Source of the DNA: Deltaproteobacteria bacterium
Lineage (GTDB): Bacteria > Myxococcota_A > Polyangia > Fen-1088
DNA length: 63,694 nt
Reading direction: 5' to 3'
Assembly: GCA_033763315.1 (NCBI GenBank)
Contig: JANRKS010000038.1
Location: 1 to 63,694, forward strand
The position numbers and the translations under genes are program-made. Numbering within the stretch: the first letter of the stretch is position 1; every line of letters starts with the position of its first letter. The notes under the pieces are model-generated. The model saw nothing but the letters and a program-made list of their open reading frames with translations, ran no database searches and had not been told where the DNA came from. This document shows positions 5,547 to 29,884 of this stretch, piece by piece.

Positions 5547-6842
5547 TCACATCACCGTTGGTGCAGCCTTCATGCGGCGTTGAAGGCGATAAGCCACGAG
5601 GCCCGCCACCAACGTGGCGCCGCTGATCACGCTTTCGAATGGCTTGCGGTAGATGGTGAACGCCACCATCCACGCCACCAACAGCAAAAACACCACTGGC
5701 ACGAAGGGCCAACCAACAACTTTGAGGCCAGGCTGCTTCTGCTTGAGACGGAACAGGCCAAACACAGTGGCTGCGTTGCTGAGGCCTAGTAACACACCGA
5801 TGTATGTCAGCAAGTGTTCATAGGTTGCTGTGGTGGCTAAGGCGACCGACAGCAACAAAATGAGTGTGATGGCGTGCCGTGGCGGTTGCCCAGGCGGCGG
5901 TGCGAGCCATGGCGGCAGATATGCGTCTTGCGCCATGCGACCCACCACGCGCGGGCCTGTGAACGTCAACGCTGAGATGCTGGCAGCCAAGGCCAACGCC
6001 ACAAGTGCCGACACCAGCGTTCCAAGCGCGGGGCCGCCCCACATGATCGCGGCGATTTTGCCCACTTCCAGTTTGCCCGCCATCAATGCGGGATCACCGG
6101 CGCGCACGAACGCCGTGTTGAGCAACAAATAAAGCAAGGTTGTGAAGCCGGTGCCCAGCAGCAGCGCGCGCGGCAATGTTTTCTCGGGGTTTTTCACTTC
6201 GCCGCCGATGTAGACGCCTGCGTTCCAACCCGCGTAGCTAAATGAAACCCACACCAACGACACAGCGAAGTCGGCGATGGGAAACGACACTGGTTGCGCG
6301 GTGAGGGTGGTGCCAAGCGGCACTTGCGCCTGGCACAGGCCAAACACCGCCAGTGAGACGATCAAGATCAGCTCACACACCACAACCCATGCGTGCACGC
6401 GGGAGCCATGACGGTGCGAAACAGCGTGCAACAATGCCGCCGCGCAAAGGATCAATACAGTTGTGATTGTGGGCGGAAAGCCCGCAGGCAAAAACGGCGA
6501 CGCGTATTTGCCGAAGGCGATGGCAGCCGAAGCCAGTGGCGCCGCGAAGCCCGCCGTCAACGACATCCACCCCGCCAGATAGCCAGCGGCGGGGTGAACC
6601 GTGCGCGAGAGAAACACGTACTCGCCGCCGCTTTCGGGAATCGTGCTGGCCAGGGCGCCGTAGCAAAGCGCGCCGCACGCCGCGAGCACGCCACCCGCAA
6701 GCCACGCCAGCAGCACCCACAAGCCTGAACGCAAGTCGGCCAGCAAAAAACCAGTGGTGGTGAACACGCCTGTGCCCACCATGCTGGCCACAACAAGGGC
6801 CGTGGTCGCGAACAACCCTAAGTGGCGGGTAGGGGTAGACAC
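5547..6842 (-). CDS. APC family amino acid permease
   Basis: VVASMVGTGVF, PESGGEYVFL, FSYAGWN, GEVKNPEKTLPRAL; about 12 TM helices; start estimated. Confidence 0.92.
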   Translation of the reverse strand: MSTPTRHLGLFATTALVVASMVGTGVFTTTGFLLADLRSGLWVLLAWLAGGVLAACGALCYGALASTIPESGGEYVFLSRTVHPAAGYLAGWMSLTAGFAAPLASAAIAFGKYASPFLPAGFPPTITTVLILCAAALLHAVSHRHGSRVHAWVVVCELILIVSLAVFGLCQAQVPLGTTLTAQPVSFPIADFAVSLVWVSFSYAGWNAGVYIGGEVKNPEKTLPRALLLGTGFTTLLYLLLNTAFVRAGDPALMAGKLEVGKIAAIMWGGPALGTLVSALVALALAASISALTFTGPRVVGRMAQDAYLPPWLAPPPGQPPRHAITLILLLSVALATTATYEHLLTYIGVLLGLSNAATVFGLFRLKQKQPGLKVVGWPFVPVVFLLLVAWMVAFTIYRKPFESVISGATLVAGLVAYRLQRRMKAAPTVM

Positions 6843-6964
6843 GCCGCCAACGATATCAGCTGCACATCTGATGGGGCGGCGGGGAATTGTTGCGGGCACG
6901 AAAAACGGGCGTCGCGTTATTTTGCTGAGAGGCCCATCTGGGTTATTGTGCTTCTTTCAGGATC

Positions 6965-8884
6965 TTGATGAGCCGCATCACCGATACGTTCCCGGTTGAA
7001 GATCTGAATGAGGCCCTGCGCAGCGCAGGCGTCGGCGTCTGGAGCTGGGACATTGCCACCAATGTGATTCGTTGGTCGGACGTTACCCACCGCATTTATG
7101 ACGTCACGCCCGAACAGTTCACGGGTGAGTATGCATCCTTCGCAGCCCGCATCCATCCCGACGATCGGCAGCGCGTGGAGCAAACCATTGCCGACGCCGT
7201 GAGGGGGTTGCGCCAAGATTACACGATCGAGCATCGTCTGATTCTGCCAGCCAACGACGTGAGGTGGGTTGAAGGGCGGGGGCGCGTGGTGTCCGATCAG
7301 CAAGGGCGTCCCTTGCGAATGATTGGCACCGTTGTTGACATCACCGCACGCAAGGCAAGCGAAGAGGAACTGCGCAAAGGTGAAGAGCGGTTGCGCTTGT
7401 TCACCACGCACGCCACGGATTACGTATACGAAGTGCGCGGGGAGGAGCACGTGCCTCACGTGGTGGCGGGATCGTTTGAGCGCACCACCGGCCTCACAAT
7501 TGCGGACGTGCGCGCGCGCGGTGGTTGGATGCAGGTTGTGCATGCAGAAGACCGAGAGCGGCTGCTTGGTCTGTTGGACGAGATCAGGCGTGGCCGCAGC
7601 CTCTTGAACGAGTACCGCATCATCGATGGCGCAGGCCGCACAAGATGGCTACGCGATCGGATCGTGCCGGTGTTAAGCGAAAACGGCGCCCTCGAAGGCG
7701 TGGTGGGTGGCGTCTCAGACATCACTGAACAGCACGCTCTGCAAGAGCGCTTGGTAGAGGCGCAACGGCTTGAAGCGTTGGGGCGGTTGGCCGCCGGTGT
7801 GGCACACGACTTCAACAATTTGCTCACCGTCTTGATGGCTGAGTCGTCGTTTTTGCAAGAGCCCAACGTGACAGACGAGATCAAGCAAACAAGCCTGCAG
7901 GCGATCAGTCTCACGCTTGAACGCGCCACCAATTTGACCTCGTCGCTGTTGGCGTTTGGTCGCAAGAACGTACGTCCCGTGGCTGTGCTTGATTTTGTGT
8001 CGTTGCTGCACAAATCGCACACGATGTTAAGCCGAGCCGCCGGCGAACGTCTGGATGTCAGTGTGCGCTGTGAAGAGCGCCAACTGCCCGTGGTGGCCGA
8101 GCCAAGCGACGTGCAGCTGGTGCTGCTGCACTTGATCCTGAACGCCCGCGAGGCGATGCCGAGAGGCGGGCGCGTGGTGTTGTCGCTGCAGGCGGTGACG
8201 CTGTCGCTGGAGGATCCCGAACGCCCGTCGTCGTTGCCGCCTGGCACATACGCGCGCCTCGTGGTGCGCGACGAGGGGCCTGGCATTGATCGCGAGGCGC
8301 TTTGCCATATCTTTGAGCCGTATTTTACGACCAAAGGGCACGGTGGCACCGGGCTGGGGTTGCCCACGTCGTTGGGCATCGTGCAGCGCTACGGTGGCTT
8401 GCTGCGGCTCAAAGAGACCTCGGCGCGTGGCAGTCTCTTCGAGGTTCTTTTGCCGGTGTCCGATCAACCATTCGCCAGAGCCGCTGTGCCCCCAAGCCGG
8501 GCCCAATTGGAGGGCACTGAACACATCTTGCTTGTCGAAGACGATGGACCGGTTCGGTCCGTTCTGTCCCGCTTGCTGCAAGACCGCGGCTACCACGTGA
8601 CCGCCGTGGCTTCAACCGAGCAGGCGCTTGCCCTAGGCGATGCATTGGCGAACGTGCAAGTTCTGCTCACCGACGTCCGCTTGCCGGGCCAAAGCGGGCT
8701 TGATTTGGCGGCACACCTGCGGCGGCTTTACCCGCGGCTGCCGGTGCTGGCGATGTCGGGGCACGTGGAGGATCCCGAACAACAGGCGCAACTAACGCAG
8801 GGGCGGTATCCCTTCATTGCCAAGCCGTTTTCCAACCAAGCGCTGTTGCTGCGTTTGCGTGAGGTTTTGGATCGCGGCGTGTAA
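6965..8884 (+). CDS. PAS-PAS hybrid sensor histidine kinase with receiver domain
   Basis: two PAS/PAC domains, AHDFNNLL H-box, FEPYFTTK..GTGLGL, receiver LLVEDD..LTDVRLP..KP. Confidence 0.95.
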   Translation: MMSRITDTFPVEDLNEALRSAGVGVWSWDIATNVIRWSDVTHRIYDVTPEQFTGEYASFAARIHPDDRQRVEQTIADAVRGLRQDYTIEHRLILPANDVRWVEGRGRVVSDQQGRPLRMIGTVVDITARKASEEELRKGEERLRLFTTHATDYVYEVRGEEHVPHVVAGSFERTTGLTIADVRARGGWMQVVHAEDRERLLGLLDEIRRGRSLLNEYRIIDGAGRTRWLRDRIVPVLSENGALEGVVGGVSDITEQHALQERLVEAQRLEALGRLAAGVAHDFNNLLTVLMAESSFLQEPNVTDEIKQTSLQAISLTLERATNLTSSLLAFGRKNVRPVAVLDFVSLLHKSHTMLSRAAGERLDVSVRCEERQLPVVAEPSDVQLVLLHLILNAREAMPRGGRVVLSLQAVTLSLEDPERPSSLPPGTYARLVVRDEGPGIDREALCHIFEPYFTTKGHGGTGLGLPTSLGIVQRYGGLLRLKETSARGSLFEVLLPVSDQPFARAAVPPSRAQLEGTEHILLVEDDGPVRSVLSRLLQDRGYHVTAVASTEQALALGDALANVQVLLTDVRLPGQSGLDLAAHLRRLYPRLPVLAMSGHVEDPEQQAQLTQGRYPFIAKPFSNQALLLRLREVLDRGV

Positions 8885-8931
8885 GTTCGGATTGCAACGC
8901 CCGCATGGTTGCGCCTAAATGCGTGACAGCT

Positions 8932-10113
8932 ATGAATCTGCGGCGTTTGATCTTGATGTGTGGTTTTGCGTTGGGCGTGGCTTGCATGCTTTGCCCAAAT
9001 CCAACGGCGGGCGCCACGGCGTCCGATGCCTACGATTTAGGAGCTGACGCTTTGGCCGTCTCGCGCCTCATCAACTGCACGAAGGAACCCGCCGCGCTTG
9101 CCGTCTCGAAGGGCGTGCATGCAGGGTACTGCGCGCGTCTGTCGGGTGTCTCGGCGCGGTTTTTGAAGCGCTTTTCGCAACGAGAAAAACCGCTGCTCAC
9201 ACAGGTGGTGCCGCAAGATCTGGACCTGCCTGTTGTCTACCCGTTCGGTGGGGGCGATCTGCTGACGGCGCTTGGCACCTATCCGAACGCCAAAGAGATC
9301 ACAACGCTGTCGTTGGAAGTTTCAGGCGATGTACGAGCGGCGTCGCGGGTCAAGCCAGAGGCTTTGGAAGCTGCCTTGATCCAAGCGGGCGACAACCTGC
9401 GCCGCCTGGTGGCCGTGGAACATTCCAAGACCACCAACTTGTCCAGCATGTCGCATTCGCCTCTGCCCGCGGAGATCGTGTTTTCGTTGTATGCGATCTC
9501 GCTGTGGGGATTCGAGACCACCGGTTTTCGGTACTTCGATATTGCGCCCGACGGATCGCTTGACTACTGGAACAAGAGCGACCTTGATAAACGCGAGGCG
9601 GAGGCCAACGCCGCGGCGGCGCGCGGGCACTTGCGATCCACCTTTTTTCCTAACATCGAAGTGCAATTCAAACGCCCGGGTGAAACCACCACGCGTGTGT
9701 TCCGCCACATCGCTGCCGACCTCTCGGACGAGCGCCTCAAAAAGGACAGCCGCGTGCTTCTGCACTTGCGCGCCAAGCAGAAGGTGTTGGCGATGACGAA
9801 GGCCGCCAGCTACCTTTTGTGGTGGGGAACATTCTCGATGATCCGCCAATGTTTGGCAGACACCGCGGTGTTTATGATCTCAGACAGCACAGGGTTTGCA
9901 CCGGGATACGCCAAGGCACAGGGCTTCAGCCAAACCACGTACGGACAGTTTCATGGATCGTTCTTGCACGAAGCGAATGAATACATCGCACAGTCGTTCA
10001 TCGAAATGTGGCGCACGCAACCGCAACGTCCCCTGCCGTTCCGTTATGGGTATCCCGATCGAGATGGCCATGGGCACATGTTGGTGACCAAGCGTGAAAC
10101 AACGAAGCCTTAG
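8932..10113 (+). CDS. secreted conserved hypothetical protein
   Basis: signal-peptide-like N-terminus; motifs VYPFGGGD, TKAASYLL, PFRYGYP; long ORF with genome-typical codon use. Confidence 0.7.
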   Translation: MNLRRLILMCGFALGVACMLCPNPTAGATASDAYDLGADALAVSRLINCTKEPAALAVSKGVHAGYCARLSGVSARFLKRFSQREKPLLTQVVPQDLDLPVVYPFGGGDLLTALGTYPNAKEITTLSLEVSGDVRAASRVKPEALEAALIQAGDNLRRLVAVEHSKTTNLSSMSHSPLPAEIVFSLYAISLWGFETTGFRYFDIAPDGSLDYWNKSDLDKREAEANAAAARGHLRSTFFPNIEVQFKRPGETTTRVFRHIAADLSDERLKKDSRVLLHLRAKQKVLAMTKAASYLLWWGTFSMIRQCLADTAVFMISDSTGFAPGYAKAQGFSQTTYGQFHGSFLHEANEYIAQSFIEMWRTQPQRPLPFRYGYPDRDGHGHMLVTKRETTKP

Positions 10114-21121: not shown

Positions 21122-21541
21122 ATGAATGCAAGTTGGATCCTGTCGTTGTGTGGTGGCGCCTTGATTGGCGTCGCTGCTTCGTTGCTGCTGGTGTTTGGCC
21201 GAGAGGTTGCGGGCATCAGCGGCATCTTTGCCGGCGCGATTTCTGCCGAGCCCGTGCAAGGCAAGTGGCGTCCCTGGTTTCTGGGGGGCTTGGTGCTGGG
21301 GGGCACGGTGTTGTGGTTGTTGCGGCCGATGTCGTTCGGGGCTGACGTGCGGTCGTGGCCTTATGTGTTGTTGGCCGGGGCGCTCGTGGGCGTGGGGACG
21401 CGGTTGTCGGGTGGATGCACAAGTGGCCACGGCGTGTGCGGGTTGAGCCGTCTTTCAGGTCGATCGCTCGTGGCCACGATCACGTTCATCACGACCGGGG
21501 TTGTGACGGTGTGGCTGCTCGGGCCCAAGGGGTGGCCATGA
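21122..21541 (+). CDS. YeeE/YedE-family (sulfur transport) membrane protein, half 1
   Basis: GGALIG, AGISGI, GTRLSGGCTSGHGVCG. Confidence 0.9.
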   Translation: MNASWILSLCGGALIGVAASLLLVFGREVAGISGIFAGAISAEPVQGKWRPWFLGGLVLGGTVLWLLRPMSFGADVRSWPYVLLAGALVGVGTRLSGGCTSGHGVCGLSRLSGRSLVATITFITTGVVTVWLLGPKGWP

Positions 21542-21990
21542 GACAGGCCTGGGTGGCGTTGGCGGCCGGATTTGTTTTCGCCTTGGGCCTGGGCCTTGGG
21601 GGCATGACGCAGCCCCTAAAGGTGACTGGGTTTTTGGATGTGTTCGGCCATTGGGATCCCTCGTTGATGTTTGTGATGGCCGGGGCGATCGCGGTGCACA
21701 TGCCCGTTGTTTTGTGGCAGCGGCGTAGGCAAGCGCGCGGCTTGATCGCCGCGCCAGAGGGGGGGTGTGGCCTGCCTGAAGAGGGCGCCAAGCTGTGGGA
21801 TGCGAGGCTCGTGGGTGGAGCCGCGGTGTTTGGTGTGGGGTGGGGGCTTGGCGGCTTTTGCCCTGGCCCCGCCTTCGTGAGCGCTGGCGCCGGGACGCTT
21901 TCAGCCCTGGTTTTCGTGGTGGGTATGGCGGCCGCTATGTGGGCGCAGGCTTGGCTTAGCCGTGGCGCCCGGGCAGGCGGGCCCCGCTAG
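21538..21990 (+). CDS. YeeE/YedE-family membrane protein, half 2
   Basis: GGMTQPLKVTGFLD, WDPSLMFVM, FGVGWGLGGFCPGP; ATGA overlap. Confidence 0.9.
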   Translation: MRQAWVALAAGFVFALGLGLGGMTQPLKVTGFLDVFGHWDPSLMFVMAGAIAVHMPVVLWQRRRQARGLIAAPEGGCGLPEEGAKLWDARLVGGAAVFGVGWGLGGFCPGPAFVSAGAGTLSALVFVVGMAAAMWAQAWLSRGARAGGPR

Positions 21991-22580
21991 CCGCCACGCT
22001 TGGGCACCACCCGCGCAATGTACGTGGCCAAGCTGCAAACCCCCAACCCCGCCGTCACAGACGCCAACCCCCAAGGCGCCGGCCTGCCCAGCAAGATGAC
22101 CATCGCCGTGGCGAACTGAAGCACCGTCGTGGCCTTACCCAGGTTGTTTGCGCGGTAGTTGTAGCGACCCTGTCTACGCAACCTGGGTGCAAGCGCGTAG
22201 ATGGTGATGGAGGCCAACTGCAGCCACTCCCGCAACAGCAACAGGCCAACGAGCCGCGCGGGTGCCCCGAAATGCCACACCAGCCCCCCGAGCACGCAGC
22301 CTATAAAGAGCTTGTCGCACAAAGGGTCCAGCCAATCCCCCCGCGGAAAATCAACCTGGGTCGGTTTTCTGGCCGCCGAAGCCCCTGCGAAATCAACCTG
22401 GGTGCTTTTCCCGGACGGGGTGCTTTTCCCGGACGCGCGGCGGGCCACCCAGCCGTCGAGAATGTCGGTTAATGCGGCGGTGGCTATAAGGACGGTGCCG
22501 ACCGAGGCCGAGCGGGCCAGTAACAAGAACAACATCCCCAAGGGCAGCCGCGACAAAGAGAGCAGATCGGCCCACGGCAT
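21987..22580 (-). CDS. CDP-alcohol phosphatidyltransferase carrying a ~25-aa in-frame insertion
   Basis: ADLLSLSR, TDILDGWVAR...GDWLDPLCDK signature, LLLLREW, GKATTVLQ. Confidence 0.88.
   Translation of the reverse strand: MPWADLLSLSRLPLGMLFLLLARSASVGTVLIATAALTDILDGWVARRASGKSTPSGKSTQVDFAGASAARKPTQVDFPRGDWLDPLCDKLFIGCVLGGLVWHFGAPARLVGLLLLREWLQLASITIYALAPRLRRQGRYNYRANNLGKATTVLQFATAMVILLGRPAPWGLASVTAGLGVCSLATYIARVVPKRGG
22400..22435 (+). repeat. perfect 18-bp tandem duplication GGGTGCTTTTCCCGGACG x2
   Basis: 22400-22417 = 22418-22435; starts inside the GGGT end of the motif copy at 22390; encodes SGKSTP/SGKSTQ. Confidence 0.9.
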
Positions 22581-22637
22581 GCGCCGAGCATACCGCAGGC
22601 CGCTGGTCGGGCACTCGCAGTCAGGTGTTGATGAGAA

Positions 22638-23288
22638 TTAATCGAGTATCGGTGCGCCGCCGCTTAGTTCAGGTGCCGGGCGGTTAGAAATCGGCAAGGG
22701 TGGCGGAAGTGCGGTCCTGCTGGGCAATTCGCTAGACTTGACAGCCGTTTCTTGTACGGGCGATCGGCGCACCTTGCGGTGTATTGACCCGGTCCGGAGC
22801 CCCTCCTGTTTCGGAGCGGATGAGGGGCCTTGAACGGGGGTTATGTCCGATAGAGCGGTCCCGCCGTTGCCGGTCCCAGCCGGGGTGACAGGCCTAGATG
22901 CTGGCAACAAACTGGGTTTAGCAGGCAGGTTCTTGTCCGAAGACGGGGGGTCTGATGATCGCCCGTAAATTGACAGGGCTAACACAATCATCGCCGCCAG
23001 AAGCAGCGGAACCGCTATGAAGGAGTAAAGTCGCCATCTGCGTAGCCGCCTGAAATGAGCGAGCTCCAAATCAAGCGTGGTTTCATTCGAACGAGCGCCA
23101 GCGGAGCGTGAGGCAACATCAGACAAGAGGGCCTTGAGGTCACCCACTTCTTTGGCGAAGGCTTCAAGTTGCGCGGCCATCGTCTCCAAGGCATGCGTTA
23201 CACCCGGCGCAGGCAGCCCGCCCGCCGGAGTCGCCCCCTGCGAAGCGAAGGAGCCACTTCTTCGTCCGGTTCGTCTTTTGCCGCTCAT
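22638..23288 (-). CDS. hypothetical single-TM protein with coiled coil and Pro/Ser-rich tail
   Basis: GAGG RBS before ATG, basic patch followed by a TM helix; no family recognised. Confidence 0.5.
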   Translation of the reverse strand: MSGKRRTGRRSGSFASQGATPAGGLPAPGVTHALETMAAQLEAFAKEVGDLKALLSDVASRSAGARSNETTLDLELAHFRRLRRWRLYSFIAVPLLLAAMIVLALSIYGRSSDPPSSDKNLPAKPSLLPASRPVTPAGTGNGGTALSDITPVQGPSSAPKQEGLRTGSIHRKVRRSPVQETAVKSSELPSRTALPPPLPISNRPAPELSGGAPILD

Positions 23289-23454
23289 AGCCGTTTCCTC
23301 ATTATCGGCCCAGCCGGTTCCAAAGTTGCTTAGAAAATCAACCCGGGTCGTGTGCCTGCAAGGCTCCAACTACCAGCCGTTCCCGAAATCAACCTGGGTG
23401 CTGCAGCGCTGTCGTTTTTGAGCAACTTCGTCGGGGAGTCGTCGATAGGTGGGT

Positions 23455-24363
23455 ATGTCACTCCCGCGACAAATTCTTGCTGGTCGAACCTATATGATCA
23501 CTCGGCGCTGCCTGCAGCGGATGTTCCTGTTGCGTCCTGACGACGAGACCACAAATGCGTTCATCTATTGTCTCGCCATCGCTTCGAAACGGTCTGGCAT
23601 CGCTGTTCATGGCTTCCTCGCGAGTAGCAACCACTACCATGCAGTGATCACCGACGTGCTTGGGCTCTTGCCGGAGTTCCTTGAATATTTTCACCGTTTG
23701 CTCGCAAAGCACCAGAACGCCTTGCATGGGCGTTGTGAAAATATGTGGAGCTGCGAGAAAACCTCGGTCGTTTGGCTGGTATCACCCGACGACATCATTG
23801 AAAAGCTGGTTTACACGCTTGCCAATCCGGTCAAGGACCAGCTCGTTGAACAGGCTCATCACTGGCCCGGGGCGACCTCTTATCACGCCACCTTGCACGG
23901 CAAAGTTCTCACAGCCTCGCGGCCGCGCAGGTTCTTTCGGACAAATGGCAAGTTGCCTCCGTTCGCGGCTCTTGCTTGTGTTCCGCCACAGGTTTGGCAG
24001 GGAGAGGCTCAGCCTCAGTTTGTCGAAACTTTGAAAGAGAGGATTCGTGACGTGGAGCTGGCCGCGGCAAAAGAGCGGCAGCGTTTGGGCAGCAAAGTTA
24101 TTGGACGTAAAGCAATTCTTTCGCAGTCGCCCACAGATTCACCATCAAGTCCACGCACCCGAAACAAATTGCGGCCAGTGCTGGCAGCCAAGAACGTGCA
24201 ACACAGAAACGCAGCCCTGGCAGAGTTGCGGCGCTTTCGCAACGCTTACCTCGTTGCCCGCGAAGCCTGGCGTTCGGACAAGACCCAGGAGTTTCCAATA
24301 GGCACGTGGTGGATCGCGAGATACGCCGGCGCTCGCTGCGCACCGGGCGGCCCGTCGGTATGA
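23455..24363 (+). mobile_element. rayT: HUH/Y1 transposase, REP-associated tyrosine transposase (RAYT / TnpA-REP)-like
   Basis: N-terminal PRQ..GRTYMITRRC, HUH motif SNHYH, catalytic Tyr in YTLANPVK, HHWPG; about 300 aa with C-terminal extension; no tnpB. Confidence 0.85.
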
Positions 24364-24366
24364 TGC

Positions 24367-27300
24367 CTATTTCAGACGTTCAAGCTGTTTCTCAACAGCT
24401 GGACGGTCGGGGGCATCGGTGGGTGCAAGCGTCAGGTATTTCGTCAGCGCCTCGGCGGCGTTCTTCCTGGAACCGGCTTGCAGTTCCGCAAAACCCAACT
24501 GAAAAAACACATCTGCGGCCCAAGGCTTGTCTTCCGGCACGTCAGCCGAAGCGCGCCGCAAGTACTCAAGCGCCTGCTTGCTTTGGCTGCGATCCATGAG
24601 CAGGCGTCCGAGCTTATAAAGCGCTTCGGTATGCTTGGGCTGCAGCCTGACCACGTTCCGCCAAGCGTCCGCGGCTTTATCACTTTCGCCCAAGGTGTCG
24701 TGGGCATTTCCCATCAGCAGGTAGGCTTCGAAAAGCTCTGGATCGATGCCAACGGCGGCCGTGAAATCACTGATGGCCTTATCAGGTTTTGCCCGCTTTA
24801 ATAGGACGCGACCGTGTTCAAGGTGCGCCTCTGCCAAAGCGAACGCTTCACGAAACGCGACCATGGCGTCGTCCTCCTTGCCCGCCTGGTTCAACACCTT
24901 GCCGAATGCCAACTGCACTTCGGGTGTGTTCTCATAACTTGTGGCCCGACGATATTCGCCAATGGCCTTGCCTAGCTCGCCCTGCTTTTCACGTAGTTGA
25001 CCCAATCCGAAAAGCGCCCCCGGCGTCTGCGGTGCATCCTCCACCACCTTCTCCAAGTGTTTGGCAGCCTTCTCGAGGTTGCCCATCTGCAGGGCGAGAC
25101 GACCGATGGCGACTTGAACTTCTGGCCCAGCTTTGCCCGAAGCCAAGGCGGCTTCGTACTGGGACATCGCTTCGTCTTTTTCGCCTAGTTGTAGAGACAG
25201 TGCAGCCAGGCGCTCGCGCAGACCGTCGGTGTTGGGGCTTTGCACCAACAACTCATCTAGCTCGAGTTTGGCTTCACCCACGCGTCCTTGCGCTTCCAAT
25301 GACGAAGCCAGTCCTAGGCGAGCCGCCGTGAGCGCTGGATCAGAGCTCAAAACCTTGCGGAAAACTTGTTCGGCTCGATCCGGTTGTTTGGCAACAATGA
25401 GCGCTTGGCCCCACGCAATTTGAAGCACGGAAGAAGGAGCCCCTGCGTTTTCGGCGGCCTTGAGAATTTTCAACGAGTCGGCGGCACGGTTCGTTCGCTG
25501 CAACAATGCAGCGAGACGCAAAGAGGCAGGTACGAACGCAGGGGTCAACTTTAAGGCTTGAGCGTATTGTTCCTCCGCCGCCCGCAGATCGGGATTGACG
25601 GCTTCCTCCGCCGCCCAGGCTTTGAAGAAGGGGCCGCGGGGATCCCGCGGGGCCATGGGCAAAGCCTTCTCGATGAGAGGAAGGCCTTCCGAAGCACGGT
25701 GCGTGGCAATCTGGGCGCCACCCAACGCGAACAACCCGTCAAGCTTCTTGGTTGCTTCTATGGCCACGCTCTGCGCGCGCGCGAGTGCCTCGTTGAATCG
25801 CCCTTCCGCGAGGAGTGTCTCCGAAAGGGCAATGCTTGCGTCGACGTTGCCAGGATCAGCTGCCAACGCTTGTGCATAGGCCTTGTTCGGGATGGCCGTT
25901 TTGCCTAGAGCCGCAGCCGTCCGGCCCTTAAGAACGTGGACCGCCGCGATCTCCGCGCCCGAAGCGTCCGTGGCGTTCAAGACGGCCAGCCGTTCAAGTT
26001 TCTCCAGCAGAATGGTTGGCTTTAAGTCCTGCGTGCGCAATGCACCGAGCGCCGCAGCGACGTGCTGTGGATTGGCCGCCGCCACCTTCGTGAATGCAGC
26101 ATTGGCCTTCTGCGTTTGGCCCGCGGCCTCGTAAGCGCGTGCCAACATGTATTGAGGCAATAAGCGCCCAGGTTGCTGCGAGACCGCGATTTCGAAGGTG
26201 CTGGCGGCTGACGCAGGGCTTCCGGAAGCCATCTGTTTGAAACCGATGATCAGCCGCGCGCCAACGCTATCTTCAATGCCGGCAAGCAACGGCTCTGCCC
26301 TTTGGGGTTTGCCTTGCGCGACCTCAAGCAAAGCGCGTGCTCTTCTTTCAACCTGGGTTGGTTCCGGAGTCTGCAAGATTTGGGATAGCGCTTGCTCGGC
26401 CTCTAACATCGCGCTTTTGGGAGCGCCGCGAGCAATCCGAGCGAGCAAGAGGAGCTCAGCAGCTTGTGCCCTCAACTCGTCGCCCTTCGATTCAATTGCT
26501 GCCTGTTGCAACAAGGCGGCAGCAGCCTGCTTGTATGAGGGAAACGAATCGCGTTCTAGCTGAGCGGCGAAGGGGGCCAGGGTTGTATCGGGCGATGCGC
26601 CTCGCTTAAGCATCGGCAAAATGAAGAATATGGCTGCGGCTGTGACCAAAGCCAGTGCGGCCCCTATGCCGCCCAGCAGCCGCAAGTTGATGGGACGGCG
26701 GCGTTTGGTTTGCTCCGGTCCGCCTTCGGCGCGATGGGGACTGAGCTCGGGAATCGCGTCTTCGAGGACGCCCATTGCATTCACTTCGATGGCGGGCAAT
26801 GCCGAGGAGGGCACCACCGTTGTGCTCGGAGACGATGGATTTTGGGCGTGAGCTCCTTCAATGTCCAAGCGAAAGCCGAGCCCGCCATCGATGGTCTGCT
26901 CACCCGGCTGAACGGGCACGCTTAGATCCGGAAGCCCCCTTGTGTGAGCGGAAGGCGAGGTGTCGGACATATCGCTCAACAGGTCCAGATCCAACCCGGG
27001 TGCACCCGCCGCCGCCTTCGGGACCCCGCCAATCCCCAATATCGTCGCCCCACCATTGGCCGTCGTTGGGGGCAGATCCATGTCGGGCGAAAGATCGAGG
27101 TCGAGGCCATCAAGAGCCGGCGCGGGGCGACCTTGTGCCGACGCTCCCAGGTTGAGTGGAGTCAGCGGACTTGCGCTCGTGGGCTCCGGCGTCCGCTCCC
27201 TGTCTTGAGAGGCACCCAGGTTGATTCTGGCGAGGGCGATGGGAGTGGCCGGAATGCGTGAATCCACCCGCTGGACAGCGCTGCGCGGCACAGGCAGGTT

Positions 27301-27909
27301 CGGTTGCGGGATTGCCTCTCGCGGTGCCGGCAAGTTGGGTAACGGCACTGCCTCCCTAGCCGCGGGGAGATTACCCAGGTTGATTTTCCCGGCCGGTTGA
27401 GGCACCGCTTCGCGCGCGGCCGGCAGATTGGGAGCCGGAATCGCCTCCCGCGGCGCCGGCAGATTTGGCTGAGCAACGGCTTCCCGGGGGGCTGGCAGAT
27501 CTTGAACGCGTGGGGGAGGCAACGGCGGCGGAGCGCCTTTGGACGCTGGAAGGTTGGGCATAGGGATCGCCTCCCGTGGCGCCGGAAAATCAACCTGGGT
27601 CAGTGGCTGCCCTCCCAGGTCAAATCCAGGTTGAGGGGGGGCGAGGCCCAGCGAGGGAGAAGGTATGGCCTCCCGAGGCGCTGGCAAGTTACTCATGCTG
27701 CGGGGGCGCCCGGGAAGCTCGGGGTCTTCACGGCTCTCAACCACCAAAGCGGCGGCGCCGCCCGCCAGCACTTGCGACGGCAGCGGTTGTGGTCGGCCTT
27801 TGGCCGAGAAGCTGTGTCCGCAAGTGGCACACCGATGGTGCTCTCCGGACCCCGGCGCTGCGGCAGGCTGTGCTCGACCGCATTTTGGACAGAAGACTTG
27901 AGCTGACAC
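24367..27909 (-). CDS. large zinc-ribbon / Pro-rich repeat / TM / multi-TPR protein
   Basis: N-terminal CPKC..CATC, NLPAPREAIP repeats, TM LLGGIGAALALVTAAAIFFILP, long TPR array. Confidence 0.88.
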   Translation of the reverse strand: MSAQVFCPKCGRAQPAAAPGSGEHHRCATCGHSFSAKGRPQPLPSQVLAGGAAALVVESREDPELPGRPRSMSNLPAPREAIPSPSLGLAPPQPGFDLGGQPLTQVDFPAPREAIPMPNLPASKGAPPPLPPPRVQDLPAPREAVAQPNLPAPREAIPAPNLPAAREAVPQPAGKINLGNLPAAREAVPLPNLPAPREAIPQPNLPVPRSAVQRVDSRIPATPIALARINLGASQDRERTPEPTSASPLTPLNLGASAQGRPAPALDGLDLDLSPDMDLPPTTANGGATILGIGGVPKAAAGAPGLDLDLLSDMSDTSPSAHTRGLPDLSVPVQPGEQTIDGGLGFRLDIEGAHAQNPSSPSTTVVPSSALPAIEVNAMGVLEDAIPELSPHRAEGGPEQTKRRRPINLRLLGGIGAALALVTAAAIFFILPMLKRGASPDTTLAPFAAQLERDSFPSYKQAAAALLQQAAIESKGDELRAQAAELLLLARIARGAPKSAMLEAEQALSQILQTPEPTQVERRARALLEVAQGKPQRAEPLLAGIEDSVGARLIIGFKQMASGSPASAASTFEIAVSQQPGRLLPQYMLARAYEAAGQTQKANAAFTKVAAANPQHVAAALGALRTQDLKPTILLEKLERLAVLNATDASGAEIAAVHVLKGRTAAALGKTAIPNKAYAQALAADPGNVDASIALSETLLAEGRFNEALARAQSVAIEATKKLDGLFALGGAQIATHRASEGLPLIEKALPMAPRDPRGPFFKAWAAEEAVNPDLRAAEEQYAQALKLTPAFVPASLRLAALLQRTNRAADSLKILKAAENAGAPSSVLQIAWGQALIVAKQPDRAEQVFRKVLSSDPALTAARLGLASSLEAQGRVGEAKLELDELLVQSPNTDGLRERLAALSLQLGEKDEAMSQYEAALASGKAGPEVQVAIGRLALQMGNLEKAAKHLEKVVEDAPQTPGALFGLGQLREKQGELGKAIGEYRRATSYENTPEVQLAFGKVLNQAGKEDDAMVAFREAFALAEAHLEHGRVLLKRAKPDKAISDFTAAVGIDPELFEAYLLMGNAHDTLGESDKAADAWRNVVRLQPKHTEALYKLGRLLMDRSQSKQALEYLRRASADVPEDKPWAADVFFQLGFAELQAGSRKNAAEALTKYLTLAPTDAPDRPAVEKQLERLK
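27285..27690 (-). repeat. coding repeat of about 12 aa / 36 bp, (N/D)LPA(P/A)REA(I/V)PxP
   Basis: about 8 imperfect units visible in the translation. Confidence 0.85.
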
Positions 27910-28227
27910 CGAAAAGACGTCCCGGGTTGAGTTTCCTCGTCGCCGCTAATGCAGGATCCTGGAGCGGCCCTTCGAAAAGTTCGGCGCTTTAGGTGGCTTC
28001 TTTAGCCCGCCGCATCCCTTTTCTCGCGTAGCGGCAAATTTTGAACGCCTCCGCCGGAAGCCGAAAGATCAACCTGGGTGCGCAGCTAAGAAAATCAACC
28101 CGGGTTCGGGTCCCCACGCAAGGTCGACCCTCCCTCCACCCCGGCTGCTGTGCCCAGCCACCTGGAAATCAACCTGGGTTCGGGTAGAGGACTTGGAAGG
28201 GCAGGCTGTGCCTGTTAAAAACGCGGG

Positions 28228-29178
28228 GTGATTCGCCACGACCATTCGCTTGCTGAGATTGAAGCCCTCTACAACCAGTCGCTGCCCCGGCTGATCCGCC
28301 AGGCGCAGGCGATTCATGAGCAGCACCACAGCCCCGACGAGGTGCAGCTGTGTACGCTTCTTTCGGTCAAGACGGGCGGCTGCCAAGAGGATTGCTCCTA
28401 CTGCCCACAATCGTCGAAGTACGAAACAGCGGTCGACCCGCAACGCATGCTCAGAGTCGACGAGGTCCTCGATTCAGCCCGCAAAGCCAAAGAGGCGGGC
28501 GCCACCCGCTTCTGCATGGGCGCCGCCTGGCGCGAGGTCAAAGAGGGCCCCGCCTTCGACTCTGTGCTCAACATGGTCCGCGGTGTCAAGGAACTGGGCA
28601 TGGAAGCCTGCGTGACCCTCGGCATGCTCACCGAAGACCAGGCCGCCCGCCTCGCGGACGCCGGCCTTACCGCCTACAACCACAACCTCGATACCTCCCG
28701 CGAGTTCTACGGCAAGATCATCAGCACCCGCACCTACGAGGATCGCCTCACCACGATCCGCAACGTTCGTAAAGCGGGCGTCACCGTGTGCTGCGGCGGC
28801 ATCATCGGCATGGGCGAATCCGTGCGCGACCGCTGCGCCATGCTGATGACCCTCGCAAACCTCGACCCGCAGCCCGAAAGCGTGCCGGTGAACATGCTGG
28901 TACCCGTCGAAGGCACGCCGCTGCAGAACCTGCCTGAGACCGATCCGCTGGAACTTGTGCGTACCATCGCCACAGCGCGCATCCTAATGCCTAAGGCCAA
29001 GGTTCGTCTTTCCGCGGGCCGCACGAAGCTGTCACGCGAGGCGCAGTTGCTGTGCTTCCTCGCGGGCGCGAATTCTGTGTTCTACGGCGAAAAACTGCTC
29101 ACGACCGGCAATCCGGATGTGCAAGAGGATCAAGCGCTCTTGCGTGACGCCGGCATGCGCCCCGCCGCTTTAGGCTAA
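28228..29178 (+). CDS. bioB: biotin synthase
   Basis: radical [42 protein letters not shown]. Confidence 0.97.
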
Positions 29179-29759
29179 GGCGCTTTTAATTCTTGCCCCG
29201 CAGCTAGACGACGAATGTTGTCGCGGTGGCGCGCCACGATCACGCCCGCCGACAGCGCGCCGTAGACGAAGTACGACGCGTGGGGCGTGCCGAACAAAAA
29301 CAAAAACGCGATGAAGGACACCGCGCCGGCCAGCGATCCCACCGAAGAGATGCGGAACGCCACGTAGCACAGCAAGTACACGCCAAACGCCGCCAACGCT
29401 GGCAAAGGCGCCAAGGCCAAGGAGGCCCCCAACGCGGTGGCCACCCCTTTGCCCCCGCGTCCCTTCAAGAACACGCTAAACACGTGCCCCAGCACCGCAG
29501 CCAACGCAACGCCCGCCACAACCCACGGCCCCACCTTCATCCCGCGCGCCGCCATCACAGGAGCCGCGCCTTTCGCCGCATCAACGACAAGCACGAACAC
29601 CGCCCAGCCCTTGCCAAGCGCGCGCCCCACGTTGCTGGCGCCAACGTTGCCGCTGCCGATCTTTCGCAAATCAACGCCTTTGGCCCGCGCGCACAAAACG
29701 CCGGTGGGGAACGAGCCCATCAAGAAGGCAAACAGAACCAGTGCGATCGCCAGCGTCAT
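29175..29759 (-). CDS. plsY: glycerol-3-phosphate acyltransferase PlsY
   Basis: [38 protein letters not shown]. Confidence 0.95.
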
Positions 29760-29884
29760 TGAATTGATCCCGCCCGCAGCATGGCGGCCGTGCTGCTGGA
29801 AGGCAAGTCCGCCACCCAGCCCGGTGCTACAGAAATTGCGCAGGGTTCCGAATCCTTTGGGCAAGGATCCAACAGAGGCATGGC

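Follow-up and report, generated by a model that had tools for sequence, protein, structure and literature searches.

A 63,694-nt stretch of contig JANRKS010000038.1 from an uncultured myxobacterium, referred to here as the window, carries a gene for a CDP-alcohol phosphatidyltransferase (CDP-OH) family enzyme in which the two halves of the catalytic signature are separated by a spacer of 33 aa. Two exact copies of a 14-nt DNA word, AAATCAACCTGGGT (the motif), lie within the codons of this spacer, and further copies cluster nearby, around a gene encoding a transposase-like protein that resembles the REP (repetitive extragenic palindromic)-associated tyrosine transposases (RAYTs). The comparisons presented here suggest that the enzyme accommodates this DNA word in a loop that tolerates changes in length.

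The CDP-alcohol phosphatidyltransferase and its spacer loop

The gene and the features of its loop are as follows (ORF, open reading frame; TM2 and TM3, transmembrane helices 2 and 3):

21987..22580, minus strand: CDP-alcohol phosphatidyltransferase family gene, an ORF of 197 aa with a PF01066 match and intact signature residues
22341..22439, minus strand: codons of the AR-to-G spacer (residues 48-80), the TM2-TM3 loop, 33 aa, RASGKSTPSGKSTQVDFAGASAARKPTQVDFPR
22346..22361, plus strand: motif copy 1, GAAAATCAACCTGGGT, with the exact 14-mer AAATCAACCTGGGT at 22348-22361; it reads TQVDFP on the gene strand and adjoins the conserved RGDWLDP
22388..22403, plus strand: motif copy 2, CGAAATCAACCTGGGT, with the exact 14-mer AAATCAACCTGGGT at 22390-22403; it reads TQVDFA on the gene strand
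22400..22435, no strand assigned: perfect 18-bp tandem duplication, two units of GGGTGCTTTTCCCGGACG encoding SGKSTP-SGKSTQ (Tandem Repeats Finder: period 18, 2.0 copies, 100% matches)

The 197-aa protein matches Pfam PF01066 (CDP-OH_P_transf) with 58.9 bits (cut-off 22), the insert splitting the match in two. Against the NCBIfam models for ClsA (NF053678) and PgsA (TIGR00560), it scores 50.3 bits (equivalog cut-off 240) and 49.1 bits (equivalog cut-off 109.1), respectively; because these scores are far under the equivalog cut-offs, the protein is placed at the family level only, without a substrate assignment. A regular expression search finds the signature D-x2-D-G-x2-A-R...G-x3-D-x3-D complete (D39, D42, G43, A46, R47, G81, D85 and D89), and all eight residues are invariant across a 26-sequence alignment of CDP-OH relatives, in agreement with the initial annotation of this DNA, which had described the catalytic Asp residues as intact. 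In the classical CDP-alcohol phosphotransferase pattern, the AR-to-G spacer is about 8 residues long. The 33-aa spacer of the window enzyme therefore departs from the short spacer of the PF01066 family, but because the spacers of its relatives also depart from the short form, it is best treated as a family variant and gives no ground for exclusion.

The AlphaFold2 (AF2) model of the protein (predicted local distance difference test score, pLDDT, 79.8) has seven helices, as in a multi-helix membrane fold. Its best fold match in the PDB is Staphylococcus aureus PgsA (7drk_A, E-value: 7.8e-4, TM-scores 0.60/0.63), followed by phosphatidylinositol phosphate synthases. The window enzyme thus shares both fold and signature residues with the S. 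aureus PgsA / CMP-forming cardiolipin synthase type (7DRJ/7DRK) and differs from it in the spacer, which is AR-x8-G in 7DRJ and AR-x33-G in the window. In the model, the insert falls between helices 25-52 and 84-104; residues 53-83 are free of secondary structure, and residues 54-75 have a pLDDT <50. The insert is accordingly predicted to be a disordered loop joining TM2 and TM3, which bears out the earlier suggestion that it forms a loop. In solved family members, the catalytic signature is on the cytoplasmic side of the membrane. By analogy with these structures, and with six Lys/Arg in the loop, the TM2-TM3 loop of the window enzyme is probably cytoplasmic. As the catalytic residues are intact, the ORF is full-length and the gene has been kept in three lineages, the enzyme is likely to be functional.

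The best 120 of 146 CDP-OH homologs were taken for comparison; of these and the window protein, 121 in all, 111 could be matched to the signature. The shortest spacer in these 111 proteins is 7 aa and the longest 45 aa, 12 aa being the most frequent length (n=50), and two relatives without the motif have 45-aa spacers. This range indicates that the loop is a free-length region in this subfamily and that a long loop is not in itself exceptional. The spacer is indeed 33 aa long, as the initial annotation described, but the norm of x(7-12) given there is too narrow for this subfamily. Spacers of 32-33 aa were found in only four of the 111 proteins: that of the window, P0001 (99% identical to it), P0002 (76-81% by alignment) and P0003 (74%). 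The P0001 spacer is 33 aa with one substitution with respect to the window, while those of P0002 and P0003 are 32 aa. Two TQVDF peptides are present in each of the four proteins (in P0002, TQVDFSR occurs twice), and the insert is missing from P0004 (64%) and from all more distant relatives in the 26-sequence alignment.

Since both TQVDF peptides are shared by orthologs that are 74-81% identical, both loop copies are old and predate the split of these lineages. The remainder of the loop has changed considerably. The start-to-start distance of the two peptides is 14 aa in the window, 19 aa in P0002 and 15 aa in P0003, and for the three pairs of these proteins the identity of the non-motif loop residues is 8/28, 10/24 and 7/26 (27-42%), while the motif residues are identical at 10/10 positions in every pair. 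The motif-coded residues thus appear to have been kept while the remaining loop diverged. The residue following the F is S or P in seven of the eight loop copies (two each in the window, P0001, P0002 and P0003), as predicted from the 5' flank of the motif, GR, which reads YCN on the opposite strand.

The two exact copies of AAATCAACCTGGGT in the loop are 42 bp apart from start to start, and the GGGT with which the 18-bp array opens belongs to the second of them. The boundaries of the duplication are unambiguous, as the outside bases (T before and C after) break the unit. P0001, which comes from a separate assembly, contains the duplication as SGKSTS-SGKSTQ, so the duplication is real; P0002 and P0003 are without it. 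Based on this distribution, it appears to be a separate young event, limited to the window lineage and its 99% relative. The two 42-bp units are alike over 28 nt at 79% identity (repeat family D2), both encoding K-[SP]-TQVDF, and this likeness allows for a single gain followed by a later tandem duplication. The length of the spacer, the 42-bp distance between the motif copies and the perfect duplication beginning at GGGT had all been reported in the initial annotation and are confirmed here.

A locally clustered DNA word

Outside the loop, a motif scan and gene prediction gave these features:

23335-23348 (1 mismatch) and 23386-23399 (exact), plus strand: motif copies in the spacer that separates orf243 from the divergently oriented RAYT-like gene
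23449..24363, plus strand: transposase-like gene of the RAYT-like Y1/HUH kind, encoding 304 aa, with 23455 as its probable start (MSLPRQ)
24367..27909, minus strand: gene for a zinc-ribbon and TPR (tetratricopeptide repeat) protein, 1180 aa, with motif copies in its disordered N-terminal part
27214-27227, minus strand (RINLG), 27373-27386, minus strand (KINLG), and 27587-27600, plus strand (TQVDFP): motif copies in the TPR gene
27145-27158, minus strand: weaker motif copy in the TPR gene, reading PLNLG
28066-28079, 28092-28105 and 28166-28179, plus strand: motif copies in the intergenic DNA separating the TPR gene from bioB (start 28228)
27920-27933, minus strand: weak motif copy between the TPR gene and bioB
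22137-22150, minus strand: motif look-alike in the CDP-OH gene, coding for RANNLGK (2 mismatches; not counted as a copy)
22175-22188, plus strand: motif look-alike in the CDP-OH gene, coding for APRLRR (3 mismatches; not counted as a copy)

When up to 2 mismatches were permitted, AAATCAACCTGGGT was matched 11 times in the window, compared to an expectation of 0.31, and 0 of 100 shuffles reached this number. All 11 matches fall within 22137-28179 (6.3 kb) and there are 0 in the remaining 57.4 kb. Among the 10-, 12- and 14-mers of the window, the motif ranks first in frequency. Ten good copies share the consensus GR-AAATCAACCTGGGT (14-16 nt): two in the CDP-OH loop, two in the spacer upstream of the RAYT-like gene, three in the TPR gene and three in the TPR-bioB spacer. 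They occur on both strands, in intergenic DNA as well as in two genes, about half of them being intragenic. Within genes, copies in the plus orientation are read as TQVDF and those in the opposite orientation as INLG, and only stop-free frames are used. All three TQVD-coding copies of the window use the codons ACC CAG GTT GAT (P = 0.012 given the peptide and the codon use of the window). Because two different peptides are encoded depending on orientation, other copies are intergenic and the codons are fixed, a purely peptide-level motif is excluded: the motif is a DNA-level entity.

The two look-alikes within 22137-22188 are probably due to chance or to drift towards the motif; the one at 22137, which is one of the 11 matches, is accounted for by the conserved family block RANxLGK. 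Their residues NNLG and PRL are present in the window, P0002 and P0003, and more distant relatives have Y/V/R and S/A/P at these positions; the shared residues could reflect drift towards the motif or coincidence. Copies 28092 and 28166 share TCGGGT after the motif (AACCYGGGTTCGGGT), a potential 5-bp mini-hairpin found in no other copy.

No known RNA families or tRNAs were identified in the window. Resemblance of the motif to IHF sites, DnaA boxes, sigma-54 promoters and BirA operators was considered and dropped because the fit seemed poor. In literature searches, none of the papers matching the letters of the motif concerned a bacterial repeat, judged by title or abstract, and among the matches listed for RAYT combined with Myxococc there was no myxobacterial RAYT repeat; within these searches, no published description of the motif was found.

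The 1180-aa TPR protein has a zinc-ribbon-like CxxC...CxxC at its N-terminus, long disordered LPAPREA(I/V)P repeats, one predicted membrane-like stretch and many TPRs. Judged by P0241 (its ortholog, discussed below) and by a Polyangia relative, L001, the stored gene call P0242 (993 aa) begins approximately 187 residues late. A PlsY-type glycerol-3-phosphate acyltransferase gene (29175-29864, minus strand) is located 7 kb from the CDP-OH gene, so that two phospholipid-synthesis genes are found near the motif cluster.

The RAYT-like gene and its linkage to the motif

The RAYT-like protein scores 32.6 bits (E-value: 6.3e-8) against the NCBIfam model REP_Tyr_transpos (NF047646), below the cut-off of 80; it has no Pfam match, and sequence searches of the PDB were empty. 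The residues of a Y1/HUH core, N61-H62-x-H64 and Y122-x3-N126, are invariant in 31 homologs. The best PDB fold match of its AF2 model (pLDDT 87.7) is 4er8_A, the Escherichia coli RAYT on a REP hairpin (E-value: 1.9e-6, target TM-score 0.65), followed by the TnpA proteins of IS608 and ISDra2. This match spans the N-terminal half only, leaving approximately 150 C-terminal residues as extra sequence. The C-terminal half (residues ~150-304) is conserved in the family and is confidently modelled as long helices and short strands without a PDB match; perhaps it is involved in DNA binding.

The family is large, with 1554 proteins recovered by a word-indexed search and 6061 representative clusters at E ≤0.001 by an exhaustive search. 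Where matches carry a name, most of them belong to Polyangia or other Myxococcota, with RayT or putative transposase as the JGI label. Based on locus tags, P0136, P0142 and P0160 belong to one Polyangia metagenome-assembled genome (MAG) and P0167 and P0178 to another, each protein being ~50-54% identical to that of the window. With several members per MAG, some genomes contain more than one copy in the form of diverged paralogs, in contrast to classical RAYTs, which are single-copy. In the window, the gene is flanked by repeats on its upstream side, where two motif copies lie within 120 nt. Its GC content is 55-58% compared to 58-67% nearby, with no clear island signal. A tblastn search of plasmids with the RAYT-like protein returned only two 28% matches from Skermanella, which were of no use.

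Three orthologs of window genes, P0003 (CDP-OH, 74%), P0122 (RAYT-like, 78%) and P0241 (TPR protein, 77% over the N-terminal 420 aa), come from the same source and have the same 18432-bp longest contig; they probably lie on one contig with the gene order of the window. P0241 keeps TQVDFPA, GKINLGNLPA and RINLGA at the same positions as in the window, and has PLDLG at the site of the weak fourth copy.

A profile scan of genome contigs with the CDP-OH alignment identified L001, a Polyangia MAG with a CDP-OH protein that is 52% identical, as the nearest relative for which DNA could be read. L001 is syntenic for bioB, the TPR protein (62%), orf243 and CCP, but it has neither the RAYT-like gene nor the motif, and its spacer is 12 aa. 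Relative to L001, the spacer loop of the window is 63 nt longer, the TPR-bioB spacer includes ~150-200 nt with three motif copies that have no L001 counterpart, and the TQVDF site of the TPR gene is 9 nt longer. At other sites the difference is one of substitution: at the ARINLG site of the TPR gene L001 has ARLNLG (CTGAACCTGGGC against ATCAACCTGGGT), and at the PLNLG site it has PLDLG. In the window, completion of the motif is aided by AGA, an uncommon codon for Arg (2.3% of those used). Because L001 already has ARLNLG and PLDLG, drift in place towards the motif is as possible as insertion at these sites. The sequence ATCAACCTGGG was found in 0 of 8 related loci, and a looser scan of these loci in which indels were allowed gave only the background rate (a 3-edit match in the TPR-orf243 spacer of L001 was not significant).

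In the loci available, no long loop was seen in a transposase-free ortholog, a finding that the initial annotation had named as refuting its proposal: P0003, the one long-loop ortholog with a neighbourhood that can be deduced, appears to share its contig with the 78% RAYT-like ortholog, and L001, which is without the transposase-like gene, has neither motif nor long loop. The proposal of the initial annotation is supported in that the added length of the loop centres on two copies of a DNA-level motif that is linked with the transposase-like gene nearby.

Upstream of orf243 (23270-23470 of the window and 5840-6030 of L001), homology between the two loci (TTTTCYWAGCAACTT...GGCTGGGCCGATAAT) resumes beside the 23335 motif copy, the TTTTC tail of which overlaps TTTTCC of L001. 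In this one case, the 23335 motif may mark one edge of the DNA carrying the RAYT-like gene. The homology of orf243 itself with L001 begins at residue 28, and its start is therefore probably near 23291. In L001, orf243 is separated from the CDP-OH gene by a 1068-aa VIT-domain gene (6746-9952), and past the CDP-OH gene follows one for an M23 peptidase. The window has no VIT-domain or M23 gene there (22580-22638) and instead carries a YeeE/DUF6691 sulphur-transport pair (21122-21990), indicating that the neighbourhood is rearranged beyond the RAYT-like gene.

Other genomes were surveyed by way of RAYT-like homologs with over-extended N-termini, reading extensions of at least 20 aa as translated 5' flank. 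The extension of P0165 (51%) contains GPRLIQT and RTQVDFGA, and that of P0178 (50%, from a Polyangia MAG) contains AEINLGE and two copies of (K/E)VDSE. P0215 has two copies of DVDSP, which are only loosely similar, and one loose STW in the P0377 extension was not counted. Exact motif peptides thus occur in 2 of 9 extensions from the 120 listed homologs and in 0 of 7 from more diverse representatives (2/16 overall); by a rough estimate, ~0.02 exact 4-mers would be expected by chance in the ~640 residues. The motif is linked to the RAYT-like gene family in at least two other genomes as well, and in part of the family, at the least, this association is genuine.

Origin of the loop copies and comparison with known systems

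The explanation that we favour, and consider reasonably probable, is that a length-tolerant loop carries a conserved DNA word from the cluster around the RAYT-like gene. The disordered TM2-TM3 linker tolerates changes in length in this subfamily, and in the lineage of the window it carries two copies of GR-AAATCAACCTGGGT, part of a cluster of at least ten around the RAYT-like gene. The word is a putative site bound or nicked by the RAYT-like protein, and it may be maintained as such a site by selection or by repeated re-homogenisation. The enzyme would stay active as the site sits in a loop of little importance, and the 18-bp duplication would be a later, ordinary slippage-type event of the window lineage and its 99% relative.

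Several points weigh against this explanation. Binding or cleavage of the motif by the RAYT-like protein is putative, and known Y1 transposases and RAYTs recognise hairpins. The motif forms none: when the ten copies were folded as single-stranded DNA (ssDNA), z-scores ranged from -1.55 to +2.08 with no shared structure, and 0 of 10 copies folded below shuffles at z < -2. No motif copy lies directly downstream of the RAYT-like gene, and with motif peptides in only 2 of 16 extensions, the link may hold for part of the family. The motif count covers the 63.7-kb window rather than the whole genome, conservation of the motif at synonymous sites in the close orthologs is deduced from their peptides, and the placement of P0003, P0122 and P0241 on one contig is deduced from equal sizes (18432) and not from the contig itself.

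The initial annotation instead envisaged that the transposase had inserted motif units repeatedly and fairly recently, that selection had kept the in-frame products and that the breakpoint between CCT and GGGT was the nick site. Clustering of the motif around the RAYT-like gene fits such a process, as do the duplication that opens exactly within the motif and shows no microhomology at either end, the intergenic motif-bearing DNA that is extra with respect to L001 and the 9 additional nt at the TQVDF site of the TPR gene. However, the recent date is contradicted by the two loop copies, which are common to orthologs that are 74-81% identical, hence old, and have been conserved since. Repeated insertion is also not needed as a cause, since a single gain and a tandem duplication explain two copies equally well. 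The link between breakpoint and nick is a single observation from one duplication and is not supported, the motif is without the hairpin typical of Y1-enzyme substrates, the spacing of copies elsewhere is irregular (51, 26, 74 and 159 bp) and 14-16 nt is shorter than the units that Y1 enzymes are known to mobilise. We regard recent insertion as unlikely, and assign the same low probability to a history in which one loop copy arose once, by insertion or drift, and the second copy and the SGKST repeat came from replication slippage, with the transposase-like gene uninvolved in loop growth. Slippage would account for the likeness of the 42-bp units beyond the motif (28 nt at 79%, with K-[SP]-TQVDF in both) and for the two TQVDFSR of P0002, and the perfect 18-bp duplication shows that slippage-type events occur here. 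This extended likeness is short and partly due to the motif's own flanks, though, while the inter-copy spacers vary in both length and sequence among orthologs, and slippage leaves the conservation of the motif letters alone unexplained.

TPR domains bind short peptides, and TQVDF could be a short linear motif selected at the peptide level, perhaps because the TPR protein encoded nearby binds it, with identity of the DNA as a by-product. The peptide is exact in two TPR orthologs and in 8/8 copies in the loops of four CDP-OH proteins, but the same 14-mer is also intergenic, codes for INLG in the opposite orientation, uses identical codons in all copies (P = 0.012) and is found upstream of homologous RAYT-like genes in other genomes, making this reading very improbable. 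Although assemblers can create short tandem repeats, we give hardly any credence to an assembly artefact or a chance feature of a low-complexity region: P0001, from an independent assembly (14283-bp contig), matches the 33-aa loop except for a single substitution, both motif peptides recur in the 32-aa loops of two more orthologs, and 0/100 shuffles reach the observed motif count. With a length-tolerant loop carrying a conserved word as the preferred reading, the copies may have originated by transposase-made insertion, by drift in place or by one gain followed by tandem duplication.

At the level of the enzyme, the message is that the TM2-TM3 loop in this subfamily is a free-length linker. 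A short DNA site appears to be under constraint within coding sequence, amid the two halves of a catalytic signature, and its cost to the protein would be 20 additional, apparently harmless, residues. If the motif is the substrate of the RAYT-like protein, the two would form an unusual pair, hairpin-free, locally clustered and with positions kept across ~25% protein divergence; recognition by HUH Y1 enzymes would then be broader than in known cases, and the locus would be a compact one in which to study domesticated RAYTs. More tentatively, and with considerable doubt, we suggest that a large, uncharacterised family of RAYT-like HUH proteins (~300 aa) has been domesticated along with a 16-nt site that is not palindromic, and that its local arrays serve the host under long-term selection rather than selfish spread. 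The sites would lie in intergenic DNA and in disordered stretches of proteins encoded nearby, among them the signature loop of a lipid enzyme. Such arrays might act in, for example, regulation at the locus, repair or replication primed by nicking, or structuring of the chromosome, and the resulting RAYT system would operate hairpin-free and place constraints on protein sequence.

[quoted passage not shown] RPEs are described there as ~150 bp and palindromic; the window unit is 14-16 nt, less than the 50 bp or more of such elements, and is without terminal inverted repeats or target-site duplication. A repeat search likewise found no inverted-repeat pair framing the loop insert. Uptake sequences (uptake signal sequences and DNA uptake sequences, USS/DUS) that occur in genes encode tolerated peptides in poorly conserved parts of proteins, as stated by Findlay and Redfield 2009 (PMC2817400). 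The window motif resembles them as a short DNA word within genes that is read as particular tolerated peptides. USS/DUS number in the hundreds to thousands across a genome and function in DNA uptake; the window motif, in contrast, has 0 copies in the 57 kb outside the cluster, and it is paired with a transposase-like gene.

Of the known kinds, the REP/RAYT pair comes closest, as in E. coli TnpA-REP (4ER8), although the differences are considerable. A REP or REPIN is defined as an imperfect palindrome that forms a hairpin, with a GTAG or CGTC head; the window repeat is non-palindromic, with no hairpin and no GTAG head in its consensus, and so falls outside this definition. On the basis of ssDNA folding, a REP or hairpin structure was rejected for the motif, and a peel-and-paste mechanism via hairpin recognition is not supported. 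Unlike REPs, the copies cluster within 6 kb of the 63.7 kb seen rather than being dispersed, and several are intragenic and conserved at orthologous places; unlike a classical RAYT, the window protein is 304 aa, with ~150 extra C-terminal residues, and scores below the NCBIfam RAYT cut-off. The similarities are that the fold of the window Y1/HUH protein best matches 4er8 and that an over-represented 14-16-mer flanks its gene upstream. According to Bertels et al. 2017 (PMC5581495), domesticated RAYTs of REP/REPIN systems are inherited along with their neighbours. The RAYT-like gene of the window seems likewise to be co-inherited with its neighbours, as its identity to its ortholog (78%) is close to that of the flanking genes (74-77%).

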